DNA from: Candidatus Bathyarchaeia archaeon
GTDB taxonomy: Bacteria > Patescibacteriota > Microgenomatia > PFEM01 > JAFGMK01
DNA: 64,000 nt
Direction: 5' to 3'
Assembly: GCA_035529595.1 (NCBI GenBank)
Contig: DATKWK010000017.1
Span: 314,961-378,960 of the forward strand
The notes beneath the pieces were generated by a model. It had not been told where the DNA came from. It searched no databases and was given only the letters and a program-made list of their open reading frames with translations. Position 1 is the first letter of the stretch; each line of letters starts with the position of its first letter. Of this stretch, positions 16,436 to 54,058 are shown one piece after another. Made by a program: the position numbers and the translations under genes.

Positions 16436-17548
16436 ATGAATTACTCTGTCTTTGCTTCCGAGTCGGTTTGTGCCGGTCATCCGGATAAAATTTGCGATCA
16501 GATTTCTGATGCGGTTTTGGACGCGGCTTATCAACAAGATTCTAATTCTCACACCGGAATTGAGTGTTTGGTGACCACCGATCGGGTGGTTGTCTCTGGT
16601 GAAGTTAAAACAGCGGCTAAAATAGACTATGAAACAATCGCCCGTAAAATCGTTAAGGATTTAGGTTACGATCAGCCTCTTTATCATTTTGATTACCACA
16701 CTGCTCGAGTAGACATTCTCGTGCACCAGCAATCACCGGATATATCCCTGGGTGTTGACCCCGGAGGTGCTGGTGATCAGGGAATGATGTTTGGCTATGC
16801 CTGTCGTGAGACAGATGAACTGATGCCGATGCCGATTATGATTGCCCATGCCTTAGTGGAGAAAATGGACGAGCTTAAAAGCGCCGAACTGCCCTATTTA
16901 CGCCCGGACGGTAAAAGCGAGGTCGTCGTCAGCTACGATAATGGTCGGCCAATTGCGGTTGAGGCAGTAGTTTTAGCCGTTCCGCATGATCCCAAGATCG
17001 AGAACAAACAGGCTAAGAATGATTTATATCATCAGGCGGTGATACCGGTTTTAGAACGGTTTCATCAAAAACCGGTCAAGCCGAACAAGGTGGTTCTTAA
17101 TGGCACCGGTAAATGGGAGATTGGTGGCCCGCATTCGGATATGGGCGAAACGGGACGAAAAATTATCGTTGATTCTTACGGGGGCATGGCTCGGGTTGGT
17201 GGTGGTTGTTTTTCCGGTAAGGATGTTACTAAAGTAGATCGCAGTGGTGCTTATGGGGCTCGATACCTTGCCAAAAATATTGTTGCTGCCGGCTTGGCTG
17301 ATAGATGTGAAGTTCAGGTGGCTTACGTCATTGGCCATCGGGAACCGATAGCCAGGGCAATTGAAACTTTTGGGACTGCCAAAGAATCACAGAGGATAAT
17401 TGAAAATTATGCTTGGCGATTACTGGATATGTCAGTTGCCGGAATCATAAACGGTTTGAATCTGCGGCAACCGATATATAACAAAACTGCCCGTTACGGT
17501 CATTTTGGCCATCCGGAGTATCCCTGGGAGCAAATTGTTTCCGTATGA
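16436..17548 (+). CDS. metK: S-adenosylmethionine synthetase
   Basis: SESVCAGHPDKICDQISDAVLDA and GGAGDQGMMFGYA hallmarks. RBS taggagga. Confidence 0.95.
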   Translation: MNYSVFASESVCAGHPDKICDQISDAVLDAAYQQDSNSHTGIECLVTTDRVVVSGEVKTAAKIDYETIARKIVKDLGYDQPLYHFDYHTARVDILVHQQSPDISLGVDPGGAGDQGMMFGYACRETDELMPMPIMIAHALVEKMDELKSAELPYLRPDGKSEVVVSYDNGRPIAVEAVVLAVPHDPKIENKQAKNDLYHQAVIPVLERFHQKPVKPNKVVLNGTGKWEIGGPHSDMGETGRKIIVDSYGGMARVGGGCFSGKDVTKVDRSGAYGARYLAKNIVAAGLADRCEVQVAYVIGHREPIARAIETFGTAKESQRIIENYAWRLLDMSVAGIINGLNLRQPIYNKTARYGHFGHPEYPWEQIVSV

Positions 17549-22908: not shown

Positions 22909-24015
22909 TTATTTTTTCTCTTCTTGTAATTTCTCCATCAAAATCGAATAGAAGCGAAGGTTGTGGATTGTTGCCAGTCTGGCAGCGGTTATTTCCTTGA
23001 TTCGAAAAAGATGAGCCAGATAAGCCCGGGAGTAATTTCGGCAGAGCAGGCAATCGCAAGCGCGGCTGACCCGTTGGTCATCTTGGAAATATTTTTCTTT
23101 ATCTGGCGTAAAGAAAGAGTAAAATTTTGGGTTTCTGATGTTTATTTTCTCAATCGAGTCAGCTTCATAGACATAGAGCCGTCGGTGGCGCGCGTCCCGG
23201 GTTGGCAAAACACAATCGAAGATATGGAAACCTAAATCAACACAGCCGACAATTTCTTCTGGTTTCCCGACACCCAGGCCGTACAAAAAATAACCCTTTG
23301 GGGAATTATCGGCGATCGTTTCGGCAACAGGGTAGTTAAATTCCCCTGTTTGGGTAATCGGCCAACCGCCATAACCGAAGCCGTCAAAACCAATTTCCGC
23401 CAATCGCTGTGTACATTCTTTTCTTAAATCAAGATAGTCTCCTCCTTGAACTACGGCTAAAAGGTAGGGGCGATTATTTCCCGTTAGCCCCTTTTTTTGG
23501 CAACACTTCAAAAATTCCTGTTTTGATCGCTTGGCCCAGATAATTGTCCGCTCAACAGTTTCATTGGCTTCTTGGTGACTTGCTTTAGGTGGGGTGAAAT
23601 CGTCAAGAACAACCAGCATATCCGGATCGAGTGTCATTTGGAAGCGGATCGATTTTTCGGGTGTAAAAAGGATTTTTTTATCTCCTTGCGGATGGAAAAT
23701 TGCCCCTTTGTCGGTAACATTTCCCCTCTTACCCCCCTTTTTGGCCAAAGTCATGACTTGAAAGCCGCCGGAGTCGGAAATTACCGCTCCTTTCCAGGAC
23801 ATAAAGCCGCGAATACCTTGGTGTTTTTTGATCACTTTAGGGCCAAGATTACGGTAAAGATGATAAGTATTGACTAAGATACCCGGTGTCTTGGTTTCTT
23901 CGATATCGCGCGAATCCAGGGTCTTGATTACTGCCTGGGTCGCATCAGGGAAAAAAACGGGCAAAGGCATTTTCCGGTCGCGGCTTTTAAAAAAAATTCT
24001 TTCTTGATTCTCCAT
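22909..24015 (-). CDS. tgt: queuine tRNA-ribosyltransferase
   Basis: MPLPVFFPDAT, DSGGFQ, and C-terminal zinc site CDCLLC...H. Start refined to MENQERI at 24015, since the longer ORF adds an atypical N-terminal extension. Confidence 0.85.
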   Translation of the reverse strand: MENQERIFFKSRDRKMPLPVFFPDATQAVIKTLDSRDIEETKTPGILVNTYHLYRNLGPKVIKKHQGIRGFMSWKGAVISDSGGFQVMTLAKKGGKRGNVTDKGAIFHPQGDKKILFTPEKSIRFQMTLDPDMLVVLDDFTPPKASHQEANETVERTIIWAKRSKQEFLKCCQKKGLTGNNRPYLLAVVQGGDYLDLRKECTQRLAEIGFDGFGYGGWPITQTGEFNYPVAETIADNSPKGYFLYGLGVGKPEEIVGCVDLGFHIFDCVLPTRDARHRRLYVYEADSIEKINIRNPKFYSFFTPDKEKYFQDDQRVSRACDCLLCRNYSRAYLAHLFRIKEITAARLATIHNLRFYSILMEKLQEEKK

Positions 24016-24108
24016 AAGGATATTATAATAAAACACTGGATGTAATCCAAGGATTTTACAATGATAGCTTTTTTTGACTAATATTGTTAAAATAGTTGCT
24101 GGGTAACA

Positions 24109-24423
24109 ATGGTTGAAAACGAAACACCAATTCCAGAAACCGGCAGACAGGCTTCTTTGCAGGTTCATAATGCCTGGAGAGCAGAACGGTTTTTTGCTGC
24201 TTCGGCGGCTGCAAGTATTGGCTTGGCCGGTGAGGGTATGCTAACGATAATCTGTGACCAGATGTTTACCGATATGGCCAGAAATGTTATTTCCGGTGTT
24301 GAAATTACCCACACGGGAGGCTGGATCGGAATGGGATTATATGTTATGAGTTTATTGGCTGGTAGCACTGCTTTGGCGGCGGCGCTTTATCTTCATGGGA
24401 AAGAAAGTAGGCAAACTCGATGA
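24109..24423 (+). CDS. small hydrophobic protein, hypothetical
   Basis: 104-aa Ala/Gly-rich ORF. Weak support only. Confidence 0.25.
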   Translation: MVENETPIPETGRQASLQVHNAWRAERFFAASAAASIGLAGEGMLTIICDQMFTDMARNVISGVEITHTGGWIGMGLYVMSLLAGSTALAAALYLHGKESRQTR

Positions 24424-39930: not shown

Positions 39931-41250
39931 ATGGAAAAGAAACGTGTGGTTATCATTGGCGCTGCCGGTCGTGACTTTCATAATTTCAACACCGTTTATC
40001 GGGATAATAATGATTTTGAAGTCGTTGCTTTTACTGCCGCCCAGATCCCGGATATCGCCGGGAGAAAATATCCGGCCAGTCTTGCCGGGTGCTTATATCC
40101 GAAAGGGATTCCTATTCTTGATGAGAATGATTTGGAGAAAGTTATTATGAAGTATAATGTTGACGAATGCGTTTTGTCATATAGTGATCTCTCTTATGAT
40201 AACGTCATGCATCTTGGTTCGCGGGTAATGGCTGCCGGAGCTAAGTTTTCCCTGCTTGGGCCGAAACAAACGATGCTTAAAAGCAGTAAACCGGTTGTTG
40301 CCGTCCTGGCGGTCCGGACCGGTTGCGGTAAAAGTCAGACTTCAAGAAGGGTGGTGGAAATCCTCAAGGAAGCCGGAAAGAAAGTAGTTTCCATCCGCCA
40401 TCCAATGCCTTATGGTGATTTGGAGAAACAAAAAGTCCAGCGGTACGCTGAGATTAAAGATCTGGAAAAATACGATTGTACGATTGAGGAGATGGAAGAA
40501 TATGAGCCGCATATTGCTATGCAGAGCGTTATTTATGCCGGTGTTGATTACGAAGCGATTTTGCGTTTGGCAGAGAGGGAGGCTGATGTAATCGTTTGGG
40601 ACGGTGGCAATAACGATATGTCTTTTTACCGGCCTGATTTAACGATTGTTGTCGCTGATCCGCTTCGTGCCGGCCACGAGATGGCTTATTATCCGGGAGA
40701 AGTTAATTTTCGGTTAGCAGACGTGATCATTATCAATAAAATTGATGCGGCCAGTCCTGGTGACGTCAAAATTGTAGAAGATAACGCCAGAAAAGTTAAT
40801 CCGAAAGCTGAAATTATTAAGGCAGAATCAGTGCTGACAGTGGGAAAACCTGATCTGATTAAAGGGAAAAGAGTATTGGTAATCGAAGACGGCCCGACTT
40901 TGACTCATGGCGAAATGAAACTCGGTGCCGGTATAGTTGCCAGCCAAAGAAATGGCGCCAGGGAACTAGTCGACCCGCGTAAGTTCGCTGTTGGAAAGAT
41001 CAAAATGACTTACGAGCATTATCCGAATATCGGTACTCTTCTGCCGGCAATGGGTTATGGGCAGGAACAAATAAGAGATCTTGAGGAAACCATCAACCGG
41101 GTTGATTGCGATGCTGTGGTTATTGGCACACCAATCAATTTGGGCCGGTTTATTAAGATTAATAAACCGTTTACCAGGGTCAGTTACGAATTATCAGAGA
41201 AAGCTAAAATAGAATTGAAAAACTATATGGAGGAGAAAAAGTTAATCTAG
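39931..41250 (+). CDS. P-loop protein of the cyclic 2,3-diphosphoglycerate synthetase / DUF1611-like family (tentative)
   Basis: N-terminal Rossmann-like VVIIGAAGRDFH and central P-loop VRTGCGKSQT. The 439-aa length matches cDPGS-like proteins. Family assignment from memory. Confidence 0.4.
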   Translation: MEKKRVVIIGAAGRDFHNFNTVYRDNNDFEVVAFTAAQIPDIAGRKYPASLAGCLYPKGIPILDENDLEKVIMKYNVDECVLSYSDLSYDNVMHLGSRVMAAGAKFSLLGPKQTMLKSSKPVVAVLAVRTGCGKSQTSRRVVEILKEAGKKVVSIRHPMPYGDLEKQKVQRYAEIKDLEKYDCTIEEMEEYEPHIAMQSVIYAGVDYEAILRLAEREADVIVWDGGNNDMSFYRPDLTIVVADPLRAGHEMAYYPGEVNFRLADVIIINKIDAASPGDVKIVEDNARKVNPKAEIIKAESVLTVGKPDLIKGKRVLVIEDGPTLTHGEMKLGAGIVASQRNGARELVDPRKFAVGKIKMTYEHYPNIGTLLPAMGYGQEQIRDLEETINRVDCDAVVIGTPINLGRFIKINKPFTRVSYELSEKAKIELKNYMEEKKLI

Positions 41251-41335
41251 AATATTGGCTGGTATGGCCTTCCGGTGGTAGATATTTTGAGACATCTAGT
41301 TTCCTATAAATATAAGAGTAATTCTATGTTTAAAT

Positions 41336-42154
41336 ATGGTTGAATTAACAGCTGGTGATAATTTATCAGAGTCAGGAGACTTTAGCCGTAAAAAGACAGC
41401 TTATTGTCAACATTTTGCCCTCTCGCATAAAGACGTGTTTCGAATTCATCAGGAGGCTGGCCTTTTAGGTTTGAAGAAAAGAGGAAGCCGTGAGTTTCGC
41501 AATGTTGCTGAACACTGTTTAGTTGCCGGTATTTTTGCTGATATTCTTTGCGAGTTAGCCGGTATGGGTCAAACAGAAAGAAATCGAGTCGTTAAGGCGG
41601 CAATTTTACATGACTGGAACAAGAGAGATGAAGTTAATAAATTGTCAAGGATATTAATTGATAAAAGCAAAATGAAAGGATATGCCAGATTATCTCTTCG
41701 AGATATCGAAGAGATTAAAACAACTCAAGCCGAATTTTTGAGAGGAAATGGTGTAGAAGCTGAAATTATTCGTTTGTCTCAGGCTAATATTCCGGAGACG
41801 GATGAAGGCCCTCAAACATTGACAGAAAAAATCGTCTGGTTTGTCGACGCCATGCTTTATGATACTGAGCCGGTAGCAGTTAGCCAAAGAATGAGTCAGT
41901 CTCAAAAACCAACCTGGGATTATACAGAAAATATTAGAATTGCTCGGAACCAGAGAATTAGTGAAGCGTATCGGGCAAGATATCGTGGTCGATCGCTTCT
42001 TGAAGTTCAACAGGCCCTAGCACCAAAGGTCAGTGCTGATATTGCCGAGGCGGTCGGTTATCAAGGCGAACCGGCTTTTTTACCAGAGTTTTTAAGAGAA
42101 CAATTTGTCCAGCGGGTCATGGGTTTTTCTGACGAAGCTAAAGCCGAAGGATAA
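41336..42154 (+). CDS. HD-domain phosphohydrolase family protein
   Basis: H...HD...D pattern (AEHCLVAG, AAILHDWNK, WFVDAM). Confidence 0.45.
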   Translation: MVELTAGDNLSESGDFSRKKTAYCQHFALSHKDVFRIHQEAGLLGLKKRGSREFRNVAEHCLVAGIFADILCELAGMGQTERNRVVKAAILHDWNKRDEVNKLSRILIDKSKMKGYARLSLRDIEEIKTTQAEFLRGNGVEAEIIRLSQANIPETDEGPQTLTEKIVWFVDAMLYDTEPVAVSQRMSQSQKPTWDYTENIRIARNQRISEAYRARYRGRSLLEVQQALAPKVSADIAEAVGYQGEPAFLPEFLREQFVQRVMGFSDEAKAEG

Positions 42155-42202
42155 GTATTCAGAAATAATTGAACTGAAAGAAAATTAGGCAATTAGACGA
42201 TT

Positions 42203-43327
42203 ATGAATATTAAGGGTAAACACTATCGAACAATTTGGCTGAAAGACGATAAAACTGTCCAAATAATCGATCAACGGTTTCTTCCTCATCAATTTATCAT
42301 CGAAGAATTGAAGGACGTCGATGAAGTTGCCCGGGCAATAAAGGAAATGCATGTCAGGGGAGCCGGGTTGATCGGGGCAACCGCCGGTTTTGGAGTTTAT
42401 CTCGCCGCCATAACTGCACCGAGGAAAGATTTTGACCGGTTTCTTCAGCTTGCCTCAAAAAGATTGATTGCTACCCGGCCGACAGCGGCCAATCTTAGAT
42501 GGGCGGTTGACAGGCAGCTTAGAAATATAGCTCTTGGTAAGACGGTTCAAGAAAAGATAATAATTGCCAAAAAAAACGCTACTGAAATTGCTGACGAAGA
42601 TGCGATGTTTTGCCGGAGGATCGGTGATTACGGCTTGAAAATTATCAAAAAAATAAGCAAGAAGAAGAAAGGACCGGTTAATATCCTGACTCACTGCAAC
42701 GCCGGCTGGTTGGCATTTGTTGATTACGGTTCGGCAACAGCGCCAATTTATCGGGCTTTTGATAGCGGGATTAAGGTGCATGTTTGGGTAGACGAGACCC
42801 GGCCCAGAAACCAAGGATCCAGATTAACCGCTTGGGAACTTCAGAAACACGGTGTACCCTATACCGTGATTGCCGATAATGTCGGTGGTCATTTAATGCA
42901 GCACGGACGGGTCGATCTGGTTATTGTCGGAACTGACAGGACAACCTATACCGGGGATGTTGCCAACAAAATCGGAACCTATCTTAAGGCTTTAGCAGCC
43001 AAAGACAACCGGATTCCTTTTTATGTAGCTCTTCCGTCGTCAACTTTTGATTGGAAAATAAAAGACGGAGTTAAGGATATTCCGATTGAGGAGAGAGGTT
43101 CAGAAGAGGTTAAATATATTCAAGGCTTATGTGAGGGGTCTATTAAAGAGGTTCTTTTGACCCCCAAAGAAAGTCATACGGCGAATTACGCTTTCGATGT
43201 GACGCCGGCCCGTCTTATTACCGGTTTAATTACCGAAAGGGGAATTTGTAAACCCAACAAACAAAGTATCTTGAAACTATATCCTGAATTTAAAAAAGTA
43301 GTAAAAGAAGATCTGAAAAATGAATAA
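42203..43327 (+). CDS. mtnA: eIF-2B-related sugar-phosphate isomerase (methylthioribose-1-phosphate / ribose-1,5-bisphosphate isomerase family)
   Basis: VQIIDQRFLP...MHVRGAGLIGATAGFGVYLAA and C-terminal PFYVALP...FDVTPA match the MtnA/e2b2 family. Confidence 0.8.
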   Translation: MNIKGKHYRTIWLKDDKTVQIIDQRFLPHQFIIEELKDVDEVARAIKEMHVRGAGLIGATAGFGVYLAAITAPRKDFDRFLQLASKRLIATRPTAANLRWAVDRQLRNIALGKTVQEKIIIAKKNATEIADEDAMFCRRIGDYGLKIIKKISKKKKGPVNILTHCNAGWLAFVDYGSATAPIYRAFDSGIKVHVWVDETRPRNQGSRLTAWELQKHGVPYTVIADNVGGHLMQHGRVDLVIVGTDRTTYTGDVANKIGTYLKALAAKDNRIPFYVALPSSTFDWKIKDGVKDIPIEERGSEEVKYIQGLCEGSIKEVLLTPKESHTANYAFDVTPARLITGLITERGICKPNKQSILKLYPEFKKVVKEDLKNE

Positions 43328-44309
43328 GGTCTATTTCTTAAAAGGTTTTAGTCGATTAGAATCAGTATCCAAAAAACTACTAGCAGGCTTTTATCGTCCG
43401 AAATCAAAGATATTGGTCAAACTGCACTTTGGCGAGCCGGGCAATCAGACCGCTTTTTTCCCCAAGGATATTAAGCCGATTGTAAATGCTTTAAAATCTC
43501 TCAAGCTTAAACCGATATTGATTGATACCCCGGTGGTCTATAATTCACTCCGAAATACGGTTGAAGGTTATACTAACGTACTCAGACAAAGAGGTTTTGA
43601 CAAGCTGGCGCCATTTGTTATTTCTGATCAGTTTATTAAGGTTAAAACCAAAGATTTTACCGCCGAAGTTTGCCGGGAGTTGGTTGAGGCAAATGGAGTT
43701 TTAGTTGTTTCCCACGTCAAGGGACATGGTTGTTCCGGATTTGGTGGTGCCATTAAAAACCTGGGTATGGGCGGTGTCAGTAAAAAAACCAAGGGAATAG
43801 AGCATGACTTAAGTAAGCCTAAGTTTGTTTCCGCATGCCGGGGTTGCGGAACTTGTGCCTCAGTTTGTCCGGCTGGGGCAATCAAGATGTTAAACGATAA
43901 AGCGGAGATTGATCTTAAGCGATGTTATGGTTGTTCCCTATGTGGAATAGTTTGTCCCTATAAATGTTTAGCACCCAAAAAAAGGAGTTTCGATGATCTA
44001 TTAGCTCAGGGAGCAGCGGCGGTAATCAATCATTTACCCCCAAAAACCTTTTATGTTAACGTGATTAAAAATGTTACCAAAGATTGTGATTGTGCCACTG
44101 ATTCAGGTAAAATTGTCGCTGGCGATTTAGGTGTTTTATTTTCCGAAAACCCGGTCGCCATCGATAAAGCCAGCATTGACTTACTGCGCCAAGCCAATAA
44201 ACGAGAAGTTTTCGAAGAAATCACCCACAAAAATCCTCTTTTGCACGTCAACTATACTGCTGGTTATATTGGTAATAACTTAAGTTATTCGCTGCTTTTA
44301 GTCTCCTAA
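43320..44309 (+). CDS. DUF362 domain protein with 2x[4Fe-4S] ferredoxin insert
   Basis: CRGCGTCASVCP and CYGCSLCGIVCP cluster motifs. Overlaps the upstream stop. Confidence 0.65.
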   Translation: MNKVYFLKGFSRLESVSKKLLAGFYRPKSKILVKLHFGEPGNQTAFFPKDIKPIVNALKSLKLKPILIDTPVVYNSLRNTVEGYTNVLRQRGFDKLAPFVISDQFIKVKTKDFTAEVCRELVEANGVLVVSHVKGHGCSGFGGAIKNLGMGGVSKKTKGIEHDLSKPKFVSACRGCGTCASVCPAGAIKMLNDKAEIDLKRCYGCSLCGIVCPYKCLAPKKRSFDDLLAQGAAAVINHLPPKTFYVNVIKNVTKDCDCATDSGKIVAGDLGVLFSENPVAIDKASIDLLRQANKREVFEEITHKNPLLHVNYTAGYIGNNLSYSLLLVS

Positions 44310-45088
44310 TGCTTATTTGTTAAACGGGCTGTGATAAAAATAAGTCCCTCATAGCCTTGATCGTATTCATTAGGAACACTACAAATTTTTATGTCACGAT
44401 AACCCAATTTGGAAAGACAGTTCTTCATGTATACCTCGTTAACTGGAAAACCGGCAAAAAAGGCGTTGCCTGACCGCCAGAAAGTGGCGTTTTTGCAGAC
44501 AAATTGGAGCAGCCAGCCTCCGGGTTTAAGTAAAAAAGTAATACTGCTCATATAGCTCTTAAATTCCTGGTCCCGGGAAGCGACAGCCTCGGTTACACCG
44601 CCGATGTAGACAACATCAAATGGTGGGTAGACTTGCGGGAAAAGCGGATTTTTTAGGCGGATGTCGCAAAAATTCAGTTTTAGGATGGAATTTATAACGC
44701 GCAGTTTCAGATGTTTGCGATTTATCCGGGTTTGACTTTTTCCCTCTAGTTTAAGAACGTAATTCAAAAATTTATCCCAATCGTAGGCAACGGGCTGATT
44801 TTCTAGCCATTTTTTCACCTCTACCAGATTTCTGTCAAGAAAATCAGTAAAAACGATTTTATTACCATAGTTGCTGGCGCTCAGAAGATGATAGATAGTT
44901 GGTCCGCCGCCGATTTCTAAAACTCTTTTTGGGCCGCCAATTTTTTTATACGCTTTGTGGATAAATTCAAGCAGAGCCTGATTTTCCGACCCGATCTCGG
45001 CATAGTACTCTTTTAAATACTCGTGCACTGAGAAGTATTTTCGGAAATTGCGTGTTTTTGTTTTCATTGTTGACAGATTGTAAACCAT
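44306..45088 (-). CDS. NNMT/PNMT/TEMT-family (PF01234-like) small-molecule N-methyltransferase
   Basis: FSVHEYLKEYY, IGGGPTIYHLLSA, FTDFLDRNLVEVKKWLENQPVAYDW, and LKPGGWL parallel the human NNMT blocks ([55 protein letters not shown]), recalled from memory. Confidence 0.75.
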   Translation of the reverse strand: MVYNLSTMKTKTRNFRKYFSVHEYLKEYYAEIGSENQALLEFIHKAYKKIGGPKRVLEIGGGPTIYHLLSASNYGNKIVFTDFLDRNLVEVKKWLENQPVAYDWDKFLNYVLKLEGKSQTRINRKHLKLRVINSILKLNFCDIRLKNPLFPQVYPPFDVVYIGGVTEAVASRDQEFKSYMSSITFLLKPGGWLLQFVCKNATFWRSGNAFFAGFPVNEVYMKNCLSKLGYRDIKICSVPNEYDQGYEGLIFITARLTNKH

Positions 45089-45094
45089 AATGTT

Positions 45095-45925
45095 ATGATA
45101 GTCACGTTGATGTCCGATAAATCAGACAACCTGATTAGCCTGATTATGCCTCTTGGTATTAATCAAGATGAGGCGAGAGTTTACTTGTATTTGCTTGAAA
45201 AAGGGACAAAAACAGCCCTCCAGTTAAGTCGCGACCTCCATATTGCCAGGACAAGAGTGTATCGGATATTGGACAAGTTGATTGAAAAGGGCTTAGTCAG
45301 TCAAAAACTTGAAGATACGGGAAAAAGATTTTTAGCTAATTCATACCATCAACTGAATTTATTATTAAAACAGCGAGAGCATGAAGTCCAGGCTCTTAGG
45401 GAATCTATACCAGTAATATTTAAGGAGCTTGAGAAGTTAGCCGCTTCTGGTAAAGAACCGTCTCACGTTCTCTATTACAGTGGCGTTAAAGGATTAAAAC
45501 AGGTAACCTGGAATTCTCTGAAAGCTAAAGACGAGCTTTTAATTTACGAAATTGCTGATATGGCAGCCTTTTTGAATTATGGCTTTTGCGAAAAAGTCCG
45601 TGAAGAATATGTAAGAAGAAAAATCTATATTCGAGAACTTACTAATTTAAGCCACCTGCCTGCCTGGACTAAGATAAAGGACTTGGTAAAAAATTATTGG
45701 CAAGTGCGGTATATTGACTCGAGAGAACTCCCGATAAAGTTTGAGGTTCTGGTTTATAACGATGTCTATGCTATGTATAATTATCAGGAAGATGATATAT
45801 TCTGTATTGAAGTTTATAACCGAGATTTAGCTGATATGCAAAAACGGCTTTTTAATTTTGCCTGGAAACGTGCCCTTAAAATAAAGATTTTAAATAATGA
45901 AGGAGAAGCACAGTTAACTAATTAA
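45095..45925 (+). CDS. TrmB-family transcriptional regulator
   Basis: N-terminal wHTH PLGINQDEARVYLYLLEKGTKTALQLSRDLHIARTRVYRILDKLIEKGLV and a ~170-aa C-terminal effector domain. Divergent from the NNMT-like gene, with starts 6-40 bp apart. Confidence 0.7.
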   Translation: MIVTLMSDKSDNLISLIMPLGINQDEARVYLYLLEKGTKTALQLSRDLHIARTRVYRILDKLIEKGLVSQKLEDTGKRFLANSYHQLNLLLKQREHEVQALRESIPVIFKELEKLAASGKEPSHVLYYSGVKGLKQVTWNSLKAKDELLIYEIADMAAFLNYGFCEKVREEYVRRKIYIRELTNLSHLPAWTKIKDLVKNYWQVRYIDSRELPIKFEVLVYNDVYAMYNYQEDDIFCIEVYNRDLADMQKRLFNFAWKRALKIKILNNEGEAQLTN

Positions 45926-46063
45926 CTGCTGATCCATAATTCGTTCGGATCGGAAATTTGATGTCCTTCCTCAAAACTCTTCCCAGCTTTTATAAACTTG
46001 CATTCATTACACAATTGTGTAATAATAAGAAAATTCAAAAGTAACCCAGTCTGAAGATATAAA

Positions 46064-46480
46064 ATGTTAAGACCAAATTCGTTATACCCGGAACTAGTTG
46101 TAGGAGCACTTATTTTTAATCCTAAAGGCCAGATATTATTAATGAAGTCCAGGAAATGGAGAAACCAATACGTGATACCGGGTGGTCACCTTGATCTGGG
46201 AGAGAAAGTTGAACAGGCTCTGAAAAGAGAAATTAAAGAAGAAACCAGTTTAAATATTTACAGTTTGAAATTTCTCAATTTTCGAGAGGCGGTTTTTGAT
46301 AAGCATGGTTGGAATAATAGACATTTAATTTTTTTTAACTATATTGCTAAGACTGGTTCTCTGGATGTAAAACTCAATTCTGAAGCCCAAGAATATTGTT
46401 GGGTAAGTTTAGATGAGGCACTGAGGTTACCATTATTGACTTATACCAGAAAAACAATCGAAGATTATAAATCTAGTTAG
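46064..46480 (+). CDS. NUDIX hydrolase
   Basis: Nudix box GHLDLGEKVEQALKREIKEETSL. Confidence 0.7.
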   Translation: MLRPNSLYPELVVGALIFNPKGQILLMKSRKWRNQYVIPGGHLDLGEKVEQALKREIKEETSLNIYSLKFLNFREAVFDKHGWNNRHLIFFNYIAKTGSLDVKLNSEAQEYCWVSLDEALRLPLLTYTRKTIEDYKSS

Positions 46481-46495
46481 ATTATTATTAAAGCT

Positions 46496-48679
46496 ATGAT
46501 TCGTAATCAAGTATTACTGACACCGGAACTGGTTTCCGAAATAAAAAAAATTGCCAGAAAACAGGGGCTTTCACAATCAGAGGTTATTAGGAAGCTCCTC
46601 GGTCGGGCCTTGGCTTTCGATGAAGGTGGTAATTTTAAAAAGGCGGCGACTCTAAGTGCTACCGGTATTTATGATTTATCTACTTTTGATTTTAAGAATC
46701 CGCGAATTGATGGTTTTAAGGAAATATTTTCTGTTGGTGGAAAAACTCCGGAGATTAAAATTGTTGGCGATGAAGTTTTTAGACACTACTTCAAATTCAA
46801 AAAATTTCCGTCAGGATTTGAATACCAGGTAGTGAAATTAAGCACTGATCTTAAGAAATTCTCGCTTAATAAAAAATTAGTTGTTCGGCGAGCCTACGTC
46901 GTTCCCGGCCTTGCAAATCCACCCGGGCCGAGGTTTTTAGGTTTAGATACGCATAAAGTGACTAAGGCAATAAAGAAAATTTTTGGTTTTGCTATTGAGC
47001 ACGAATATCATCTGGCGGAGAATTCTCAAATTTGTGCCTTTTTTTATCCCTTTGATGATCCGAGGCCAGTAGCCTCGTTACTAGAGTCGGATTTAATCCT
47101 ACCTTATGGCGGATATGCGGCTCCCTTGAACCGGCTAGCCTCGCGGGTTGAAGTTTTTGCAGTTTGGGGTAACAACGAAGGCGTTCAATCGTTCGACACA
47201 ATTGATAGGTATATTGTTGATGCTGAAAGAGACATTATCTCCGAAAAAGAAATTCCCCAAAAAACATTGATGTTTTGTACTACCAAAAAGTCTCAATCAG
47301 AAAAAATTGCCGTTCCTCAAAATAGGCAATTCGAACAAGTTTTAAGTGATAGCGAGATTCTCGAAGTAGGCAGAGTAGTTAAAGAATTGACCGCTAAATA
47401 CGGTTTGCGGCGAGTGGAATTTTCTTTCGACGGAAAAGAAACGATTACTTTTAATGAGTCCGTTCCTTATGAAATTGCTCCTCAAAAATTAGAAAGCATT
47501 GACCGACGCGGATTTATTAAAATTATCTCCTCAGAAAAAGATATTGAGGTATTAAGGAAACTCAAACTCAAACAGGTTGCCAAAGTTATTGTTTATATTG
47601 ATAAGGCTATTGTTGAAAATCGTGCTTATGATATTTTAAACAGTGTTGCCGGCTTGCCTAATAAATTTACAGTTTTATACCCCGGTCTTTCCGCTACCGC
47701 CCATGCGATGAGGATTCTTAATGATTTTGGCCATACGGCAATCGTCGTTGGCAACCGGATTTTTAAAGAAGGCGAAGAGGTGATTATCAGAGCTAAGGAT
47801 ACACAGATTGAGATTAAGGTGATTTCAAGAAAAAGCCTTAAGAATCTGATGGTTCATCTTTATGACGCAAAATTATACGGTAAAGAGCTGGTGGGCGGTA
47901 AGGCCACTAACCTTTCACTGCTTAAATCCAAGGGATTTAATGTGCCTCATGGTTGGGTTTTGACAACCTCTTTTTTCGATCAAATCGTTTCCCGGTCAAT
48001 TGACAGTCATAGCTTACGGCAATTAGAGCAAGGTCAACTTTATCACAGTAGCTTTGTTAAAAAACTTTCAGAATTCAATTTTGATATTCCTCAGGCGTGG
48101 TGGATTAAGTTCAAAAAGGCCGGTCAATTTTCTCCTAAAAAAAAGTATGCCGTTCGTTCCTCAGCTACGGTTGAAGATCAGCTAGAACACTCTTTTGCCG
48201 GTCAGTTTAAAACTTTTTTGAATGTCGGGGGGAACCGAATAACAACAAATGTTTCAGCGGTCATAAAAAGTACTTTTAGCGATCGAGTCGCCCAATATCT
48301 TTCCGCCCTGAAAAGATCCTGGTCGATAAAGATGGCGGTAATTATCCAGGAGATGGTCGAAGCGGAAAAGTCAGGCGTCATTTTTGGTAAAGACATTCAG
48401 ACCGGCAATGAAGACTTATTAATAATTGACACCGCTCCCGGCTTGGGTGAAGGAGTGGTTGAAGGAACTGCGAAAACGCAAAGAATTATCTATTCACGAA
48501 GTAAAGATGCTATTCTTGACCAAAATCAATCTCCAAAATTTCTCTCACGAATAGAAATTGACTCTCTGGTTGAAATGGCTTTAAGCGTCGAAAGAATGAT
48601 GGGTGAAACTCAAGATATTGAATGGGCGATTGATAAAAAGAACAATATTTGGTTAATCCAAACTAGAAGCCTGCGATAG
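46496..48679 (+). CDS. PEP-utilising-enzyme-like phosphotransferase with permuted domain order
   Basis: C-terminal ~290 aa match the PPDK_N ATP-binding domain (GGKATNLSLL, VRSSATVEDQLEHSFAGQFKTFLNV, MAVIIQEMVEAEKSGVIFG). The preceding segment GLSATAHAMRILNDFGHTAIVVGNR...GEEVIIRA resembles the phospho-His swivel domain. N-terminus is RHH-like. No TIM-barrel PEP/pyruvate domain. Confidence 0.55.
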   Translation: MIRNQVLLTPELVSEIKKIARKQGLSQSEVIRKLLGRALAFDEGGNFKKAATLSATGIYDLSTFDFKNPRIDGFKEIFSVGGKTPEIKIVGDEVFRHYFKFKKFPSGFEYQVVKLSTDLKKFSLNKKLVVRRAYVVPGLANPPGPRFLGLDTHKVTKAIKKIFGFAIEHEYHLAENSQICAFFYPFDDPRPVASLLESDLILPYGGYAAPLNRLASRVEVFAVWGNNEGVQSFDTIDRYIVDAERDIISEKEIPQKTLMFCTTKKSQSEKIAVPQNRQFEQVLSDSEILEVGRVVKELTAKYGLRRVEFSFDGKETITFNESVPYEIAPQKLESIDRRGFIKIISSEKDIEVLRKLKLKQVAKVIVYIDKAIVENRAYDILNSVAGLPNKFTVLYPGLSATAHAMRILNDFGHTAIVVGNRIFKEGEEVIIRAKDTQIEIKVISRKSLKNLMVHLYDAKLYGKELVGGKATNLSLLKSKGFNVPHGWVLTTSFFDQIVSRSIDSHSLRQLEQGQLYHSSFVKKLSEFNFDIPQAWWIKFKKAGQFSPKKKYAVRSSATVEDQLEHSFAGQFKTFLNVGGNRITTNVSAVIKSTFSDRVAQYLSALKRSWSIKMAVIIQEMVEAEKSGVIFGKDIQTGNEDLLIIDTAPGLGEGVVEGTAKTQRIIYSRSKDAILDQNQSPKFLSRIEIDSLVEMALSVERMMGETQDIEWAIDKKNNIWLIQTRSLR

Positions 48680-48770
48680 GTAATTTTGACGTTCCTAACA
48701 GCAAGAACTGCATTTTCCCCATTATTAGGAAAAAAATACTTTATACATTCCACATAACTATTCTACATAG

Positions 48771-48927
48771 CTGAGACTGTTGAATAACTGCCTGTCATTC
48801 TGAGTGGGTCAAAATTTAGACCCTGAAGAATCCAGGTACGAAGTACCGTTGATTACGCTTCGCTAGATCCTTCAGTCGAAGCTTCGACCTCAGGATGACA
48901 ATTGTAAAAACGATATTCAACAGTCTT
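48771..48927. repeat. ~155-bp nested palindromic element (MITE-like or structured RNA)
   Basis: 12-bp perfect terminal inverted repeats gactgttgaata / tattcaacagtc, second-tier tgtcattctgag / ctcaggatgaca, internal hairpins GGGTC-N8-GACCC, GGTAC-gaa-GTACC and GTCGAA-gc-TTCGAC. Flanked by near-identical 8-mers acatagct / atatagct. Confidence 0.45.
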
Positions 48928-48977
48928 ATATAGCTAGCTCTTGACAGAACGTTAATTTATAGATTAATGTAACCTGC

Positions 48978-48992
48978 ACCTATGGTATAGGT
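48978..48992 (+). promoter_or_regulatory. palindrome ACCTAT-GGT-ATAGGT, candidate CsoR operator
   Basis: Lies between the TTGACA-N17 promoter (48931-48966) and the RBS of csoR. Resembles TACC/GGTA-type CsoR boxes. Confidence 0.3.
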
Positions 48993-49011
48993 AATAAGAA
49001 AGGAGAAATTT

Positions 49012-49299
49012 ATGGAAAACAAGAAAACGGAAAGCAAAAAACAAGCTTCACTTCTGAATTTTAAAAAAGCCCGAAGCCATATCGGTAAGATTATCAAGAT
49101 GATTGAAAAAGACGCTTACTGTGTTGATATTATGCAGCAAAATTTGGCGGTTATCGGTTTATTGAGATCCGCTCATCAGAAACTGATGGAAAATCATTTA
49201 AATACCTGCTTTATCAAAGCCCTGGATTCAAGAAATACGCAAAAAAAGGAAAAAATGGTTCAGGAGATATTAAAAGTAGCCAGCTTATTTAACCGGTAA
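49012..49299 (+). CDS. csoR: CsoR/RcnR-family metal-sensing transcriptional repressor
   Basis: ARSHIGKIIKMIEKDAYCVDIMQQ...AHQKLMENHLNTC carries the C-H-C metal ligands in DUF156 spacing. Confidence 0.7.
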   Translation: MENKKTESKKQASLLNFKKARSHIGKIIKMIEKDAYCVDIMQQNLAVIGLLRSAHQKLMENHLNTCFIKALDSRNTQKKEKMVQEILKVASLFNR

Positions 49300-49305
49300 A
49301 TAATA

Positions 49306-50691
49306 GTGAAACCTAAAAAACCATTATCTTTAAAAGAGCAAACCTTTTTGGTTAAGAATCTGCATTGTTCTTCTTGTGAGTTGTTAATAGAAAAAAGACT
49401 CCTAAACCAAGAAAATGTGATTCGCGTTAAAGCTTCAGTAAAAGACGGCTTAGTAAAGATTAACTACCAAGGTAACGGACTTAAAATTCAAGATTTAAAT
49501 CGGCTTTTCAAAAACGAGAATTATCTTTTCTCGTATCCATCAATTGGCAGCCAAGTTAGTAAGCCTCCGAGACTGAAAGATGCTTTATCGGCGATAATGA
49601 CCGCTCTTTTGATTATCATCGGTTTTGTGCTGATTAATCAATCAGGTTTGTTGGCTTCAGTGGAAATTAAAAAGACCTCATCTTTACCGGTTTTTTTTCT
49701 TTTTGGGCTTCTGGCCGGAGTTTCAAGTTGCGCTGCTTTGGTTGGTGGTCTTGTCTTATCCATGAGCAGGCAATGGTCTTGGGCTTATTCAGGAAAGGAG
49801 TCAGTTTTAACTCGACTCGAACCTCACCTGCTTTTTAACTCCGGGCGATTAGTTTCATATGGATTATTGGGGGCACTTCTGGGCAGTATCGGGAGCATCT
49901 TTAAGCCTTCACCTTTTTTTTCCTCGATTTTAGTCATTGGAACCAGTCTGTTAATGATTATATTAGCTCTCCAGATGTTGGGGATAAGAACCTTTCGACG
50001 AATTCAGATCGCTTTACCCCGGTCCGTCACCGGCTTTATCACTAACGAGGGGAATTTTAAAGCCCGTTATCTACCCTTTGTAATGGGTGCTTTAACTTTT
50101 TTTCTACCCTGTGGTTTTACCCTGACCGCACAGGGCTTAGCAACTATAAGCGGCAGCCCGATGCAAGGGGGATTGATTATGTTTCTGTTTGCCTTGGGTA
50201 CCTTGCCTTCACTTCTGCTAATAAGCCTTTCCGGTATTGCTTTTGTACAAAAACCTTCCCGGTCTGGTCTCTATCTTAAGATAGCCGGAGTGGTGGTCCT
50301 TTTTTTTGCTTTCTTTAATCTGAATTCTCAGTTGAATACGTTAGGCTTACCTTCCCTGAGTGATTTTAGGACAAAAAAGAGTAATGCTTCGCAATCAATA
50401 GAGCAGAACATACAGGTCATTGAAATGGCAGCGTCTGCTTATGGTTATGATCCCAGTTATTTTAAAGTTAAAGTTGGTATTCCCGTGAGATGGGAGATTA
50501 CTGACAAAGGAACCAGTGGTTGTACCAGTGCGGTGATCGCCAAAAACCTGTTTGACGGGCAGATAAATCTGATTCATGGCCAGACTAGCGTTAAAGAGTT
50601 TATCCCCGAAAAACCGGGACGTTATAAGTTCAATTGCTGGATGGGAATGGTATCCGGAATAATTGAAATTGAAGGGTGGGAGCTGGAATGA
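49306..50691 (+). CDS. HMA-domain / polytopic permease / cupredoxin-like fusion protein (copper homeostasis, putative)
   Basis: N-terminal HMA CxxC (LHCSSCE), about 8 TM helices with SSCA motif (TauE/CcdA-like), and a C-terminal beta domain ending in GRYKFNCWMGMVSGIIEI. Confidence 0.45.
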   Translation: MKPKKPLSLKEQTFLVKNLHCSSCELLIEKRLLNQENVIRVKASVKDGLVKINYQGNGLKIQDLNRLFKNENYLFSYPSIGSQVSKPPRLKDALSAIMTALLIIIGFVLINQSGLLASVEIKKTSSLPVFFLFGLLAGVSSCAALVGGLVLSMSRQWSWAYSGKESVLTRLEPHLLFNSGRLVSYGLLGALLGSIGSIFKPSPFFSSILVIGTSLLMIILALQMLGIRTFRRIQIALPRSVTGFITNEGNFKARYLPFVMGALTFFLPCGFTLTAQGLATISGSPMQGGLIMFLFALGTLPSLLLISLSGIAFVQKPSRSGLYLKIAGVVVLFFAFFNLNSQLNTLGLPSLSDFRTKKSNASQSIEQNIQVIEMAASAYGYDPSYFKVKVGIPVRWEITDKGTSGCTSAVIAKNLFDGQINLIHGQTSVKEFIPEKPGRYKFNCWMGMVSGIIEIEGWELE

Positions 50692-51770
50692 AAAACAGAA
50701 AAAGGAAGATCGTTGTTGGCATGTCCGGAGGAGTCGATTCTTCGATGGCTCTAGTTTTGTTAAAACAGCAGGGTTGGCAGCCGGTAGGCGTTTCTCTAAA
50801 GTTGCCGGTCTGGCAGGAAGCGCCGGGTTTATCGGTTGAAAATATTTACAGCTCCAACCGGTCTTTGCAGATTGCTGCCAGGATTTGTCGAAACGTAAAC
50901 GTTCCCCATCACATAATCGATGTCCGGTCTGAGTTTAAAAAGACGGTCATTGGTTATTTTATTTCTGAACTTAAAAATAACAAAACTCCTAATCCCTGTG
51001 TCATTTGTAATCGCCATTTGAAGTTTAAGAAACTGCTTGAATTTGCTGAAAAAGAGAAAGCAGACTTTATTGCTACTGGCCATTACGCTCGGATAAGAAA
51101 AAACCAGCAAACCGGTAAATATGAACTGCTGAAGGCAAAAGATAAAACTAAGGACCAAACATATGCTCTCTGCTTTTTACCTCAGGAATGGTTGGGTAAA
51201 ATTGTTTTCCCCCTCGGAAATTATGCTAAAAAAGAGGTTTATCAGATAGCTAAATCCTCGGGGTTTGAATTTTTCCTGAAACGAAAACAAAGTCAGGATT
51301 TTTGTTTCGCGACCGGGTTGTCTTTGTTGTCTTTCTTGAAAAAAGAAATCGGAGAAAAAAGCGGTGACATAATAGATAATGAAGGAAATGTTTTAGGTCA
51401 ACATTCGGGTTTGCATTTTTATACCATCGGACAAAGGAGACGATTAGGTCTTTCGGGTGGTCCTTACTTTGTCAAAGGTATTGATTCGGAAAAGAATATC
51501 TTGATTGTGACTAAAAACGAAAAAGAGGTAACGCAACGAGAACTTAAACTTTACCCATTTCATTTTATCAGCGGACGTTCGCTTCCAAAAAAGCAACCTG
51601 TAATGGCAAAAGTTCGCTACCGCCAAGTATTGAGTAAGGCGCTTCTCTATCCGCCTGAAAAGAACAAACTGCGTTTGGTCTTTGGCCGACCACAAAGAGC
51701 AGTTACTTCTGGTCAGTTTGCCGTCTTTTATCAGAGTGAAGTTTGCCTGGGAGGAGGAGTGATTTTATGA
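50688..51770 (+). CDS. mnmA: tRNA-specific 2-thiouridylase
   Basis: PP-loop [12 protein letters not shown] and the [10 protein letters not shown] Cys region. ATG overlaps the upstream TGA, and its own stop overlaps the copA ATG. Confidence 0.85.
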
Positions 51771-54058
51771 AGAAGAAAATAGATTTGGACATTTCCGGTA
51801 TGCATTGCAGCGGTTGTGTCGTTAGTATTGAGACTCTTCTGAAGAAACAAGAGGGTATCTATTCAGCCAGCGTCAATTTTGCTTCCGAAAGGGCAATAAT
51901 CGAGTTTGATCCGCGAAGAATCACTCTAAAAAGGATCAAAGAAATGGTTAAGAAGATAGGTTACGAAGCCGAAGAATCGGGAGAAGATCATCAAGAAGCG
52001 GAAAGTAAAAAAATCAAGAAATTAAGAGATACTTTTCTTGGTTCATTACTCCTTGGTTTACCTCTTTTTTACCTAAGCATGGGAGATATGCTTAGCCTGC
52101 CAAGGCTACCGATCTCTACCAGCACGAATACCCTGATTCAATTTTTGTTGACAGCAGGAATTATGATTCAAAACGTACGCCTTTATATATCCGGACTTAA
52201 GAAACTAAGGCAAAAGAATCCTGACATGGATTCTTTGGTGTCGATGGGAACATTAGCTGCCTTTGTTTACAGTTTAATTGCTTCAATCAGCGTCTTTTTC
52301 GGACCGGCAAAGATAAAGGAAACTCATCTTTATTTTGAAAGCGCTGGTTTTATCTTAATCTTTATTTCTTTGGGAAAATATTTGGAGGCTATTACCAAGG
52401 AGAAAACAAGTGAAGCGGTCAAAAAACTTATCGGACTAAGACCTAAAGAAGCAACAGTAATCAGGGGAGGTGAACAAATGAAAATTCCGATATCAGCAGT
52501 ATTAACCGGCGATTTGCTTCTGGTAAAACCCGGCGAGAAGATACCGGTTGACGGTGTTGTTGTCAGCGGTTATTCGGCAGTAGATGAGAAAGCCTTTACC
52601 GGTGAGAGTCTTCCGGTTGAGAAGAAAACCGGTGATGAAGTTATCGGCGCCACAATAAATATGACTGGCATCTTAAAAATCAAAGCCCGGCATATAGGTA
52701 AAAAAATGATGCTTTCTCAAATCATTAAGATAGTCGAAGAAGCGATCGGCTCTAAAGCGCCGATCCAGCTTTTGGCAGATAAAATTTCGTACTACTTCGT
52801 TCCGGTGGTAATGGTAATCGCTTTTTTGGCCTTTTTTTTCTGGTTAATCGTCGGTCAATCATTGGAGTTTGCTTTAACGGTGTTTATTGCGGTTTTGATT
52901 ATTGCCTGTCCTTGTTCTTTAGGATTGGCGATGCCAACAGCAATTATGATGGGCGCGGGATTAGCTGCCCAACGGGGGATTTTAATCAGGAAACCCCAGG
53001 CCTTGGAAATGGCGGAAAAGGTTAATTTGGTGGTGTTTGACAAAACCGGTACCCTAACTTTGGGCAAACCAACCGTCACTGATGTTCTGTCCGTGGCCAA
53101 ACTGAAACTTAAAAGTTCATCAATAAATTCGAAACTGTCTGAAGATCAACTTGATGTTTTGCAGGCCACTGCCTCACTGGAAAAAAACTCGCAGCACCCA
53201 TTGACTCACGCAATTTTAAAAAAAGCCAACCAAGAAAATTTGAAGTTATTTAAGGTTGAAAGTTTCACCACAATTCCCGGCCAAGGAATAACAGGAAACC
53301 TGGAGTCAAAAACTCCAGGTGTTAAACTCAAACTGCTTTTGGGAAATAGAAAATTAATGGCAGAAAATCAGGTCCTGATCAAACCAGCCGGAAATAGAGC
53401 AATCGGTCAATTAGAAAATCAAGGAAAGACAGTCATGATTTTAGCAGTAAATCGACGTCTGGCCGGATTAATCGCCGTGGCTGATATTGTGAAGGATCAG
53501 GCTCAGGAGACCCTGGATCTACTTAGAAGATTAGGTAAGAAAATAGTAATTATTACCGGTGATAACCGCCGTGTTGCTGATGTAATCGCACATAAGTTAG
53601 GAGTTGATCAAGTCTTATCAGAGGTTTTACCTCAAGAAAAGTCAAAAGAGATTAAGAAATTACAGCAACAAGGCCATACCGTAGCTATGGTCGGTGACGG
53701 TATCAATGATGCTCCGGCTTTAGCTCAGGCTGATTTGGGAATAGCCTTGGGGTCCGGTACCGACGTGGCTATCGAAACAGGTGATATTATCCTGGTGAAA
53801 GACGATTTACTTGATGTAGTTAAAGCTATTGATTTGAGCCGGTACACCTTAAAGAAAATTAAGCAGAATCTTTTTTGGGCTTTTTCCTACAATATTATTG
53901 GTATTCCGATCGCTGCCGGTATTTTGTATCCGACTACCGGTTGGCTCTTGGAGCCGATGATTGCGGCGGCAGCAATGGCTTTTTCTTCAGTCAGCGTTGT
54001 AGTCAATTCGTTACTGATGAAAAGGTATCGATTATCTAAGCCTGGTACACTTCCTTAA
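51767..54058 (+). CDS. copA: copper-translocating P1B-type ATPase
   Basis: HMA GMHCSGC, CPC motif, [20 protein letters not shown] ggaggagg before ATG 51767. Confidence 0.9.

Follow-up and report, generated by a model that had tools for sequence, protein, structure and literature searches.

How does a gene that resembles mammalian nicotinamide N-methyltransferase (NNMT) come to stand divergently beside a TrmB-family regulator in a prokaryotic genome, what does its product methylate, and does its neighbor control it? We have studied this gene pair in a stretch of 64,000 nucleotides (hereafter the window) from contig DATKWK010000017.1 of assembly GCA_035529595.1, where a preliminary description had seen an animal-type methyltransferase of the NNMT/PNMT/TEMT family in a dedicated unit with its regulator. 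The feature is real and correctly located, but its product is a prokaryotic, GntF-like amine N-methyltransferase of family PF01234 in a bacterium of the candidate phyla radiation (CPR); it is neither an NNMT of animal type nor tied to the metabolism of nicotinamide adenine dinucleotide (NAD).

The longest minus-strand open reading frame (ORF) at the locus spans 44306..45088 and comprises 260 amino acids, and the neighboring ORF on the plus strand comprises 276 (45095..45925). As evidenced by a profile search, the 260-residue protein scores 138.1 bits (E=4e-40) with PF01234 (NNMT_PNMT_TEMT), whose gathering cutoff is 25, over positions 7-260 of the 261 in the profile, a match that chance cannot account for, while generic methyltransferase families remain below their own cutoffs. 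The earlier assignment to this family was thus borne out, and the protein did not fall into a generic class I family. The four sequence blocks on which that assignment had been built, FSVHEYLKEYY, IGGGPTIYHLLSA, FTDFLDRNLVEVKKWLENQPVAYDWDKF and LKPGGWL, are present in the translation, and phmmer aligns them collinearly with the matching blocks of mouse NNMT (2i62). Against solved structures the phmmer E-values are 2.5e-28 for mouse NNMT, 3e-27 for human NNMT, 2.9e-28 for human INMT and about 1e-22-2e-22 for PNMT. An AlphaFold2 (AF2) model built on 15 homologs reached a mean predicted local distance difference test (pLDDT) score of 91.8 and a predicted template modelling score of 0.89, and in Foldseek it matches NNMT and INMT with TM scores of 0.82-0.87 (about 0.85) at 25-28% identity. 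In the alignment to mouse NNMT, with numbering anchored on D197, the cofactor and catalytic residues Y20, Y24, Y25, G63, Y69, D85, N90 and D142 are all kept; the tyrosines among the conserved residues we take to be contacts to the carboxylate of S-adenosylmethionine (SAM). The protein therefore combines a class I fold and PF01234 membership with an intact SAM and catalytic site, and from this site it looks to be an active, cytosolic SAM-dependent N-methyltransferase. Its gene is monocistronic.

The resemblance to the mammalian enzymes, NNMT being represented by PDB entries 2i62, 2iip and 3rod, in fold, length and active-site residues does not extend to descent. A phmmer search of 1.84 billion cluster representatives returned 1,484 relatives at E<=1e-3, of which 66 reach E<=1e-30 and the best is 43% identical, and the first NNMT/INMT-like representative of mammalian type (P0100) appeared only at rank 77, behind 76 that score better. 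In neighbor-joining trees, whose animal side consists of two PDB-derived sequences and a few unannotated animal-like representatives, 100 of 100 bootstraps separate the prokaryotic sequences as a monophyletic group from the animal-like ones, with the window protein inside the prokaryotic radiation, and by distance from it NNMT and INMT are 166th and 195th of 213. The GC content of the gene (0.408) is that of the window (0.397). The label 'animal-type' does not withstand these results, and the idea of a horizontal transfer from metazoa finds no evidence for an animal donor in this phylogeny. In addition, E35, N36, F42 and a GGG that replaces GSG in motif I are conserved specifically in prokaryotes and present in the window copy.

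Members of this prokaryotic branch occur at over 100 distinct loci, in DPANN archaea as well as in many phyla of bacteria. Scanning one genome per species for the single motif [ED][FIV]GGGPTIY, which misses the Beckwithbacteria gene discussed below (ELGGGPTIY), identified 55 species in many phyla plus DPANN archaea, among them Saccharibacteria and other Patescibacteria, Woesearchaeota and other archaea, Opitutales, Leptospirales, Spirochaetaceae, Desulfonema magnum, Bdellovibrionota, Cloacimonetes, Myxococcota, Chloroflexota, Gammaproteobacteria, Planctomycetes, Mycobacterium szulgai and Nocardia alni; 77 further loci came from a scan of metagenomes. That the family is unusual in bacteria, as had been stated, is thus true only in relative terms, given the 55 species retrieved with one motif and the existence of two bacterial NCBIfam models, GntF (NF041360) and SCO2525 (NF040568). 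The SCO2525 family is PF01234-related and similar to the window protein over its full length, but membership was rejected with 43.9 bits against a cutoff of 240. The nearest named relatives, in Saccharibacteria, Woesearchaeota, Opitutales and Desulfonema, share 38-41% identity. The closest homolog of all, at locus L061, is 61% identical and groups with the window protein in 100 of 100 bootstraps; L062 joins them weakly at 50/100, as does the Beckwithbacteria gene (L068) at 40/100. The two members of this small subclade with known hosts, the window copy and L068, both belong to Microgenomates-type CPR bacteria.

The most informative property of the branch lies in its gene neighborhoods. All loci were merged into 113 distinct methyltransferase groups (>=95% identity), with locus ORFs called mechanically and decarboxylases counted from Pfam-verified seeds propagated by BLAST, assignments beyond the seeds being by BLAST only. 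On this basis 61 of the 113 groups carry a decarboxylase gene in the locus, and 45 carry one within 300 nt. The linked genes are a pyruvoyl-dependent arginine decarboxylase (PvlArgDC) in 31 groups, AdoMet_dc in 19, OKR_DC_1 in seven, a SpeA-type enzyme in three and an ODC-like enzyme in one, and other genes of agmatine and polyamine metabolism occur as well: AguA-like agmatine deiminase (four groups), deoxyhypusine/homospermidine-synthase-like (DHS-like) genes (two) and an AguB-like CN-hydrolase (one). When the 128 complete same-strand neighbors within 250 nt were surveyed with Pfam in an unbiased census, the most frequent families were PvlArgDC (13 times) and AdoMet_dc (ten times), followed by OKR_DC_1 (three times) and Orn_Arg_deC_N (twice). 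An internal control compared near and distant genes of the same loci: within 300 nt of the methyltransferase 33 of 195 genes (16.9%) encode decarboxylases, but at a distance of at least 1.5 kb 6 of 570 (1.1%) do, corresponding to an odds ratio of 19 (Fisher p=2e-15).

Individual loci illustrate this coupling. An operon at L072 consists of a DHS-like gene, the methyltransferase, an AguB-like and an AguA-like gene, and in an Opitutales genome a SpeA-type decarboxylase adjoins the methyltransferase. In two groups AdoMet_dc and PF01234 are fused in one protein, as in L111 (370 aa), with the AdoMet_dc domain, a pyruvoyl decarboxylase, at the N-terminus; L125-L127 carry the fusion of L045 as well, and P0095 and P0146 are probably further cases. 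In L045 the methyltransferase part ends early after approximately 100 residues, and a deoxyhypusine-synthase-like gene adjoins. The fusions suggested that the enzyme might be an aminopropyltransferase using decarboxylated SAM, an idea that was rejected as the tyrosines predicted to hold the SAM carboxylate are kept. A further recurrent arrangement is a three-gene unit of PvlArgDC, methyltransferase and a conserved ORF of approximately 120 residues without a Pfam match, which lies directly downstream of the methyltransferase and often overlaps it; a large hybrid histidine kinase is often found upstream. More distant and longer PF01234 relatives (320-370 aa, 22-27% identity; L046-L050 and L055-L058) from CPR bacteria and Bdellovibrionales share their operons with genes for a histidine kinase and an OmpR-type response regulator, to which an AdoMet_dc gene is often added.

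The methyltransferase of this clade is thus physically coupled to five types of decarboxylase for arginine or basic amino acids, which belong to four families without relation to one another, and their convergence on one and the same partner argues strongly that the enzyme acts on a decarboxylation product. PvlArgDC and SpeA are arginine decarboxylases by definition, and part of the AdoMet_dc paralogs and of the OKR_DC_1 enzymes have this activity too, so that the conversion of arginine to agmatine is the one activity that all five types could share. GntF, a cyanobacterial enzyme of the same Pfam family and the same prokaryotic branch, N-methylates an arginine-derived guanidino-amine in the guanitoxin pathway (PMC10673588), and an arginine-derived substrate matches the linkage of the clade to arginine decarboxylases. 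From the decarboxylase coupling and the analogy with GntF, as well as with PNMT and INMT/TEMT (2a14), the PF01234 enzymes that methylate decarboxylation-derived amines in animals, we infer that the clade would methylate the amine product of the linked decarboxylation, either agmatine or a close amine of the polyamine pathway. If so, plant putrescine and coca spermidine N-methyltransferases would be functional analogs, carrying out SAM-dependent N-methylation in a polyamine pathway. These plant enzymes derive from spermidine synthase, not from PF01234, and share no homology with it at the family level. The searchable literature yielded nothing on the decarboxylase linkage or on a bacterial polyamine or agmatine methyltransferase of PF01234; a passage on GntF in a review and the spermidine N-methyltransferase of plants were all that came up.

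The partner of the methyltransferase gene in the window is a regulator of the TrmB family and of TrmBL2 type. Its ORF matches PF01978 (TrmB) over residues 20-71 with E=1e-14 and 54.5 bits against a cutoff of 25.6, and its AF2 model (pLDDT 91.5) consists of a winged helix-turn-helix (approximately residues 15-76), a long helix (81-111) and a C-terminal PLD-like alpha/beta domain that matches the PLD-family nucleases NucT, Nuc and Zucchini. The best PDB matches in Foldseek are all TrmBL2 (5bpi, 5box and 5bpd; E ~1e-14 over 263-281 alignment columns), a chromatin protein and global repressor of Thermococcales of the same size and with the same three structural parts. A sugar-binding domain is lacking, in that Regulator_TrmB of Pfam gave no match at E<=0.01, which sets the protein apart from TrmB and TrmBL1, and NCBIfam scores are far below cutoff for both (TrmBL1 28 vs 650, TrmB 15 vs 600). 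As this subdomain is missing, no ligand can be predicted for the regulator. The divergent pairing with a TrmB-family winged-helix protein, as originally described, is correct and recurs in Ca. Beckwithbacteria RBG_13_42_9 (L068), where the closest named homolog of the regulator (57% identity) is also divergent to a PF01234 gene.

The architecture of the region between the two genes depends on where they start. A gap of 6 bp was rejected, as it results from choosing the longest ORFs, and the likely starts leave 42 bp. The NCBI record HUW21482.1 begins the methyltransferase at Met8, in agreement with the N-termini of homologs and with pLDDT values below 50 for residues 1-8 of the model, and HUW21483.1 begins the regulator at Met6, the first residue of a start MSD(K/Q)SDNL that is common to six regulator lineages and lies approximately 10 nt past a TATAAT-like box. 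A consensus scan of the intergenic region detected a promoter-like site for the regulator that agrees with consensus in 11 of 12 positions (TTGACA, 18 nt spacer, TG-extended TATGAT). Its -10 box ends 10 nt ahead of the ATG, and box and spacing are kept in L068 and partly in four other lineages. A weaker site for the methyltransferase (GTGACT, 17 nt, TACAAT; 9/12) overlaps it back-to-back, with a predicted transcription start approximately 3 nt upstream of the Met8 codon. From these positions, the mRNAs of both genes would be leaderless or have a very short leader.

Across the first seven codons of the regulator runs an imperfect inverted repeat, TGTCCGA-N4-TCAGACA. In CPR regulators of this type (L063-L067, L068, L146-L150 and the window copy) the block TGATGTCCGA-N4-TCAGACA stands at the start codon, and in the six lineages it is nearly invariant as DNA, including the synonymous positions of TCC and GAC, even though the proteins are only approximately 50-57% identical to the window regulator; without any mismatch, the repeat occurs in the window, in L068 and in L149/L150. 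The window contains this exact match only once and no other copy with up to two mismatches, while seven operator-like sites at up to three mismatches are within chance expectation and the other intergenic repeats are only short and weak. The repeat is a plausible autoregulatory operator directly beside the predicted promoter of the methyltransferase. In all six sampled lineages a divergent partner, a small-molecule gene of variable identity, lies at 38-64 bp from the regulator, and since such a close partner is always found, the action of the regulator is suggested to be local rather than global, unlike that of TrmBL2, to which it is only 17-20% identical and which it resembles neither in host, being from a bacterial CPR lineage, nor in this constant arrangement.

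Taken together, the methyltransferase and the TrmBL2-like gene would be transcribed divergently from overlapping back-to-back promoters in the 42-bp gap, with the repeat as the likely binding site, and occupancy of this start-codon repeat by the regulator would repress both genes locally. As the window copy has no linked decarboxylase and resides in a biosynthetically poor CPR cell with a reduced genome, it most likely methylates an amine that is scavenged and not self-made, which may be agmatine- or polyamine-like or a bulkier, hydrophobic amine. We hold this account as a whole, a GntF-like amine N-methyltransferase acting on a scavenged amine under local repression by a TrmBL2-like protein, with moderate confidence.

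Several observations weigh against it, and those on the side of the regulator leave room for an incidental adjacency, in which a general or chromatin-type DNA binder of CPR bacteria merely happens to stand beside variable accessory genes and exerts no specific control over the methyltransferase. TrmBL2, its best structural match, is a chromatin-like global DNA binder. The regulator family is far more common than the methyltransferase, with 176 homologs (41-57% identity, all named ones from CPR Microgenomates) against 15 in the same database, and among the 97 methyltransferase groups with at least 600 bp of upstream DNA the regulator is the partner only in the window and in L068 (L073 being the same sequence). 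In four of the six sampled lineages the divergent gene is not a methyltransferase, the other close homologs facing an EamA transporter, short-chain dehydrogenases or an 86-aa PQ-loop/semi-SWEET-like protein. The two paired methyltransferases are only 38% identical and group in 40 of 100 bootstraps, with which a shared vertical origin of the pair is not established. The conservation of the repeat has an alternative cause in coding constraint on the first seven codons of the regulator, and promoters and operator alike are read from consensus or conservation. The claim of a dedicated, substrate-responsive unit cannot be upheld in view of the missing sugar-binding subdomain, the abundance of the family and its changing partners. 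Nevertheless, the close spacing and the conserved start-codon block in all six lineages are typical of local regulators, and the same partner family recurs in two genomes, so that local co-regulation of the methyltransferase is plausible and a purely incidental adjacency appears less likely to us.

On the side of the substrate, the inference made for the family reaches the window copy only weakly, because neither the window nor L068 holds decarboxylase or polyamine genes: tblastn at E<=1 with SpeA, OKR, ODC, AdoMetDC, PvlArgDC, AguA, AguB and DHS-like queries found none in the window, L068 likewise lacks a decarboxylase, AdoMetDC, AguA, AguB or DHS-like gene, and none of L061, L062 and L068 has a linked decarboxylase. 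Within the family at large, AdoMet_dc and OKR_DC_1 neighbors need not be arginine decarboxylases, and besides GntF no enzyme of the prokaryotic clade was found characterized in the searchable literature. Finally, the predicted binding pocket of the window copy is remodeled with respect to the clade consensus. E35, E167 and A201 are kept, but F164, 91% conserved among prokaryotic members, is a glycine, and Y204, A197 and A213 are replaced by tryptophan, valine and glycine. Among the sequences compared, F164 is lost in L005 (G), L061 (S) and L068 (G) and retained in L062, all four have tryptophan instead of Y204, and positions 197, 198 and 213 also deviate from the consensus.

These features lend weight to a detoxifying methyltransferase of TEMT/INMT type that would act on non-amine nucleophiles, such as thioethers or selenium and tellurium compounds, or on xenobiotic heterocycles. 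With V197, C198, A201 and W204 the pocket is hydrophobic and INMT-like, valine at 197 and non-polar residues at 201 and 213 being common to both enzymes, and the loss of the clade-typical F164 and the missing decarboxylase and polyamine genes fit this view as well. PF01234 includes a thioether S-methyltransferase, INMT methylates selenium compounds, as reported in PMC10844679, and among the genes that homologous regulators face are efflux-type EamA and semi-SWEET transporters. INMT, TEMT and PNMT, however, belong to the animal clade and differ from the window copy in the prokaryote-specific residues, decarboxylase or polyamine genes accompany the nearest relatives whose context is informative, and the retained acidic residues E35 and E167 fit a cationic amine. 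We regard such a detoxification role as a serious rival of amine methylation, but an unlikely one.

The reading as an animal-type nicotinamide or pyridine N-methyltransferase of metazoan origin, serving NAD salvage or detoxification under a dedicated substrate-sensing TrmB, draws on the NNMT structures as best solved matches, on the four shared blocks and on the divergent regulator. Beyond its conflict with the phylogeny, the ranking of cluster representatives, the normal GC content and the architecture of the regulator, it fails at the binding site, since residues D197, S201 and S213 of NNMT, which we take from the structures to bind the nicotinamide carboxamide, are V/A/G in the window copy, compared to A/A/A in the prokaryotic consensus and V/L/C in INMT. 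The context of the family, moreover, consists of arginine-decarboxylase and polyamine genes. A decayed nadE, which had been mentioned for another part of the window, was not found there, where the sole PP-loop (SGGxDS) in six-frame translation sits in an intact MnmA. Note that this MnmA (SGGVDS) also gives a weak similarity to NAD_synthase without an aligned stretch, and the nadE claim may have misread it. We consider nicotinamide methylation by an animal-derived enzyme very improbable.

The weakest alternative is the one in the public record, where the NCBI Prokaryotic Genome Annotation Pipeline names HUW21482.1 'guanitoxin biosynthesis pre-guanitoxin forming N-methyltransferase GntF': although the protein scores 67.4 bits against a cutoff of 60 with NF041360, this is marginal for an equivalog model of 273 positions, the same model yields 70-135 bits in nine of ten diverse clade members, including Deltaproteobacteria, Opitutales, spirochaetes and Mycobacterium from unrelated contexts and with its highest score in a PvlArgDC-linked member, a profile search (Pfam/NCBIfam) found no gene of the gntA-J cluster among the neighbors, and the host is a CPR bacterium and not a cyanobacterium, with a monocistronic, regulator-paired gene, so that we give a genuine role in guanitoxin synthesis virtually no credence. 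As the cutoff of 60 captures the whole clade and gnt neighbors are missing, the name is an over-annotation.

The label of the metagenome-assembled genome at NCBI, 'Candidatus Bathyarchaeia archaeon', is doubtful as well, because the window genes are of bacterial type (MetK, queuine Tgt, MnmA, DinB, MacAB-type efflux components and a PhoR-like kinase) and the named close homologs of MetK (62-72% identity) and of the regulator (44-57%) all belong to Ca. Beckwithbacteria, the Microgenomates group or Patescibacteria. The 385-kb contig (JGI Ga0307380_10000013) almost certainly stems from a Beckwithbacteria-like CPR bacterium and was mis-binned into an archaeal genome. The methyltransferase gene is the sole minus-strand gene within a plus-strand run, and its neighbors encode an HD-domain protein, MtnA, a DUF362-ferredoxin protein, the TrmB-like regulator, a NUDIX protein and a PPDK_N protein. 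The DUF362 gene, with two [4Fe-4S] ferredoxin domains, is convergent with it, and the 3' ends overlap by 4 bp; the gene downstream of the L061 homolog is unrelated to it. The PPDK_N protein (727 aa), encoded downstream of the regulator and the NUDIX gene on the same strand, begins with a ribbon-helix-helix-like segment (weak RHH_1/aCcr1 similarity) and otherwise carries only a PPDK_N ATP-grasp domain as in phosphoenolpyruvate synthase or rifampicin phosphotransferase-like enzymes. Neither tRNA nor Rfam scans detected an RNA gene in the window. Around close relatives of the methyltransferase, on CPR and unassigned contigs, genes of mobile or accessory type were observed, namely a tyrosine recombinase, a CopG antitoxin, a PIN/PhdYeFM toxin-antitoxin pair and AbiEii, which suggests that the gene sits in flexible genome regions among these relatives. 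All coordinates are collected in Table 1.

Table 1. Features of the methyltransferase locus in the window and of compared loci (L numbers; positions refer to the respective locus).
Feature	Position	Strand	Basis
SAM-dependent small-molecule N-methyltransferase, coding sequence, PF01234, prokaryotic GntF-like branch	44306..45067	-	253 aa from Met8; PF01234, AF2 model, NCBI HUW21482.1
Divergent intergenic region, 42 bp, with both candidate promoters	45068..45109	.	sequence reading; starts at Met8 and Met6
Promoter-like site for the regulator	45070..45099	+	consensus scan
Weaker promoter-like site, presumably of the methyltransferase	45077..45105	-	consensus scan
TrmBL2-like regulator, coding sequence	45110..45925	+	271 aa from Met6; PF01978, AF2 model, structure matches
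Imperfect inverted repeat, regulator codons 1-7, candidate autoregulatory operator	45111..45128	.	DNA conservation in six lineages
Plus-strand run around the methyltransferase gene	39931-54058	+	
DUF362 and 2x[4Fe-4S] ferredoxin-domain gene	43320-44309		
PPDK_N protein gene	46496-48679		
MetK	16436-17548		bacterial type
Tgt	22909-24168		bacterial type
MnmA	50676-51770		bacterial type; intact
AdoMet_dc-PF01234 fusion	L111:2151-3263		
AdoMet_dc-PF01234 fusion	L045:7611-8291		
ORF of ~120 aa next to PvlArgDC-linked methyltransferases (examples)	L018:8768-9139; L076:4726-5088; L079:4741-5103; L097:4741-5106		
Mobile/accessory-type flanking genes	L006:7023-7931; L062:162-440; L068:3466-4123 and 7505-8402		CPR and unassigned contigs

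For the locus itself, our results are mostly corrective: a presumed animal-type enzyme turned out to be an ordinary member of the prokaryotic branch, and both the name GntF and the label Bathyarchaeia are misleading. The most valuable lead lies outside the window copy, in the family-level linkage to decarboxylases including the fusion proteins, which predicts N-methylation of agmatine or polyamines. In a wider and more tentative view, the prokaryotic PF01234 proteins may be a broad, uncharacterized group of agmatine or polyamine-pathway N-methyltransferases recruited beside five decarboxylase types, N-methylated agmatine or polyamines may be widespread yet overlooked metabolites of bacteria and archaea, and the CPR subclade of the window may be a derived offshoot that modifies amines scavenged from the environment or a host, under a TrmBL2-like local repressor.

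PF01234 enzymes such as NNMT, PNMT and INMT are famous in human pharmacology, but of their prokaryotic relatives hardly any except GntF has been studied. The linkage provides a substrate hypothesis that can be tested cheaply, with Desulfonema magnum, Mycobacterium szulgai and Nocardia alni among the cultured carriers. Should it hold, the polyamine metabolism of bacteria would gain a new modification, and the amine N-methyltransferases of animals may descend from, or parallel, an ancient amine-methylating module coupled to decarboxylases. The TrmBL2-like regulators of CPR bacteria, with the palindrome at their start codon, in turn offer an entry into the poorly understood transcriptional regulation of Patescibacteria.

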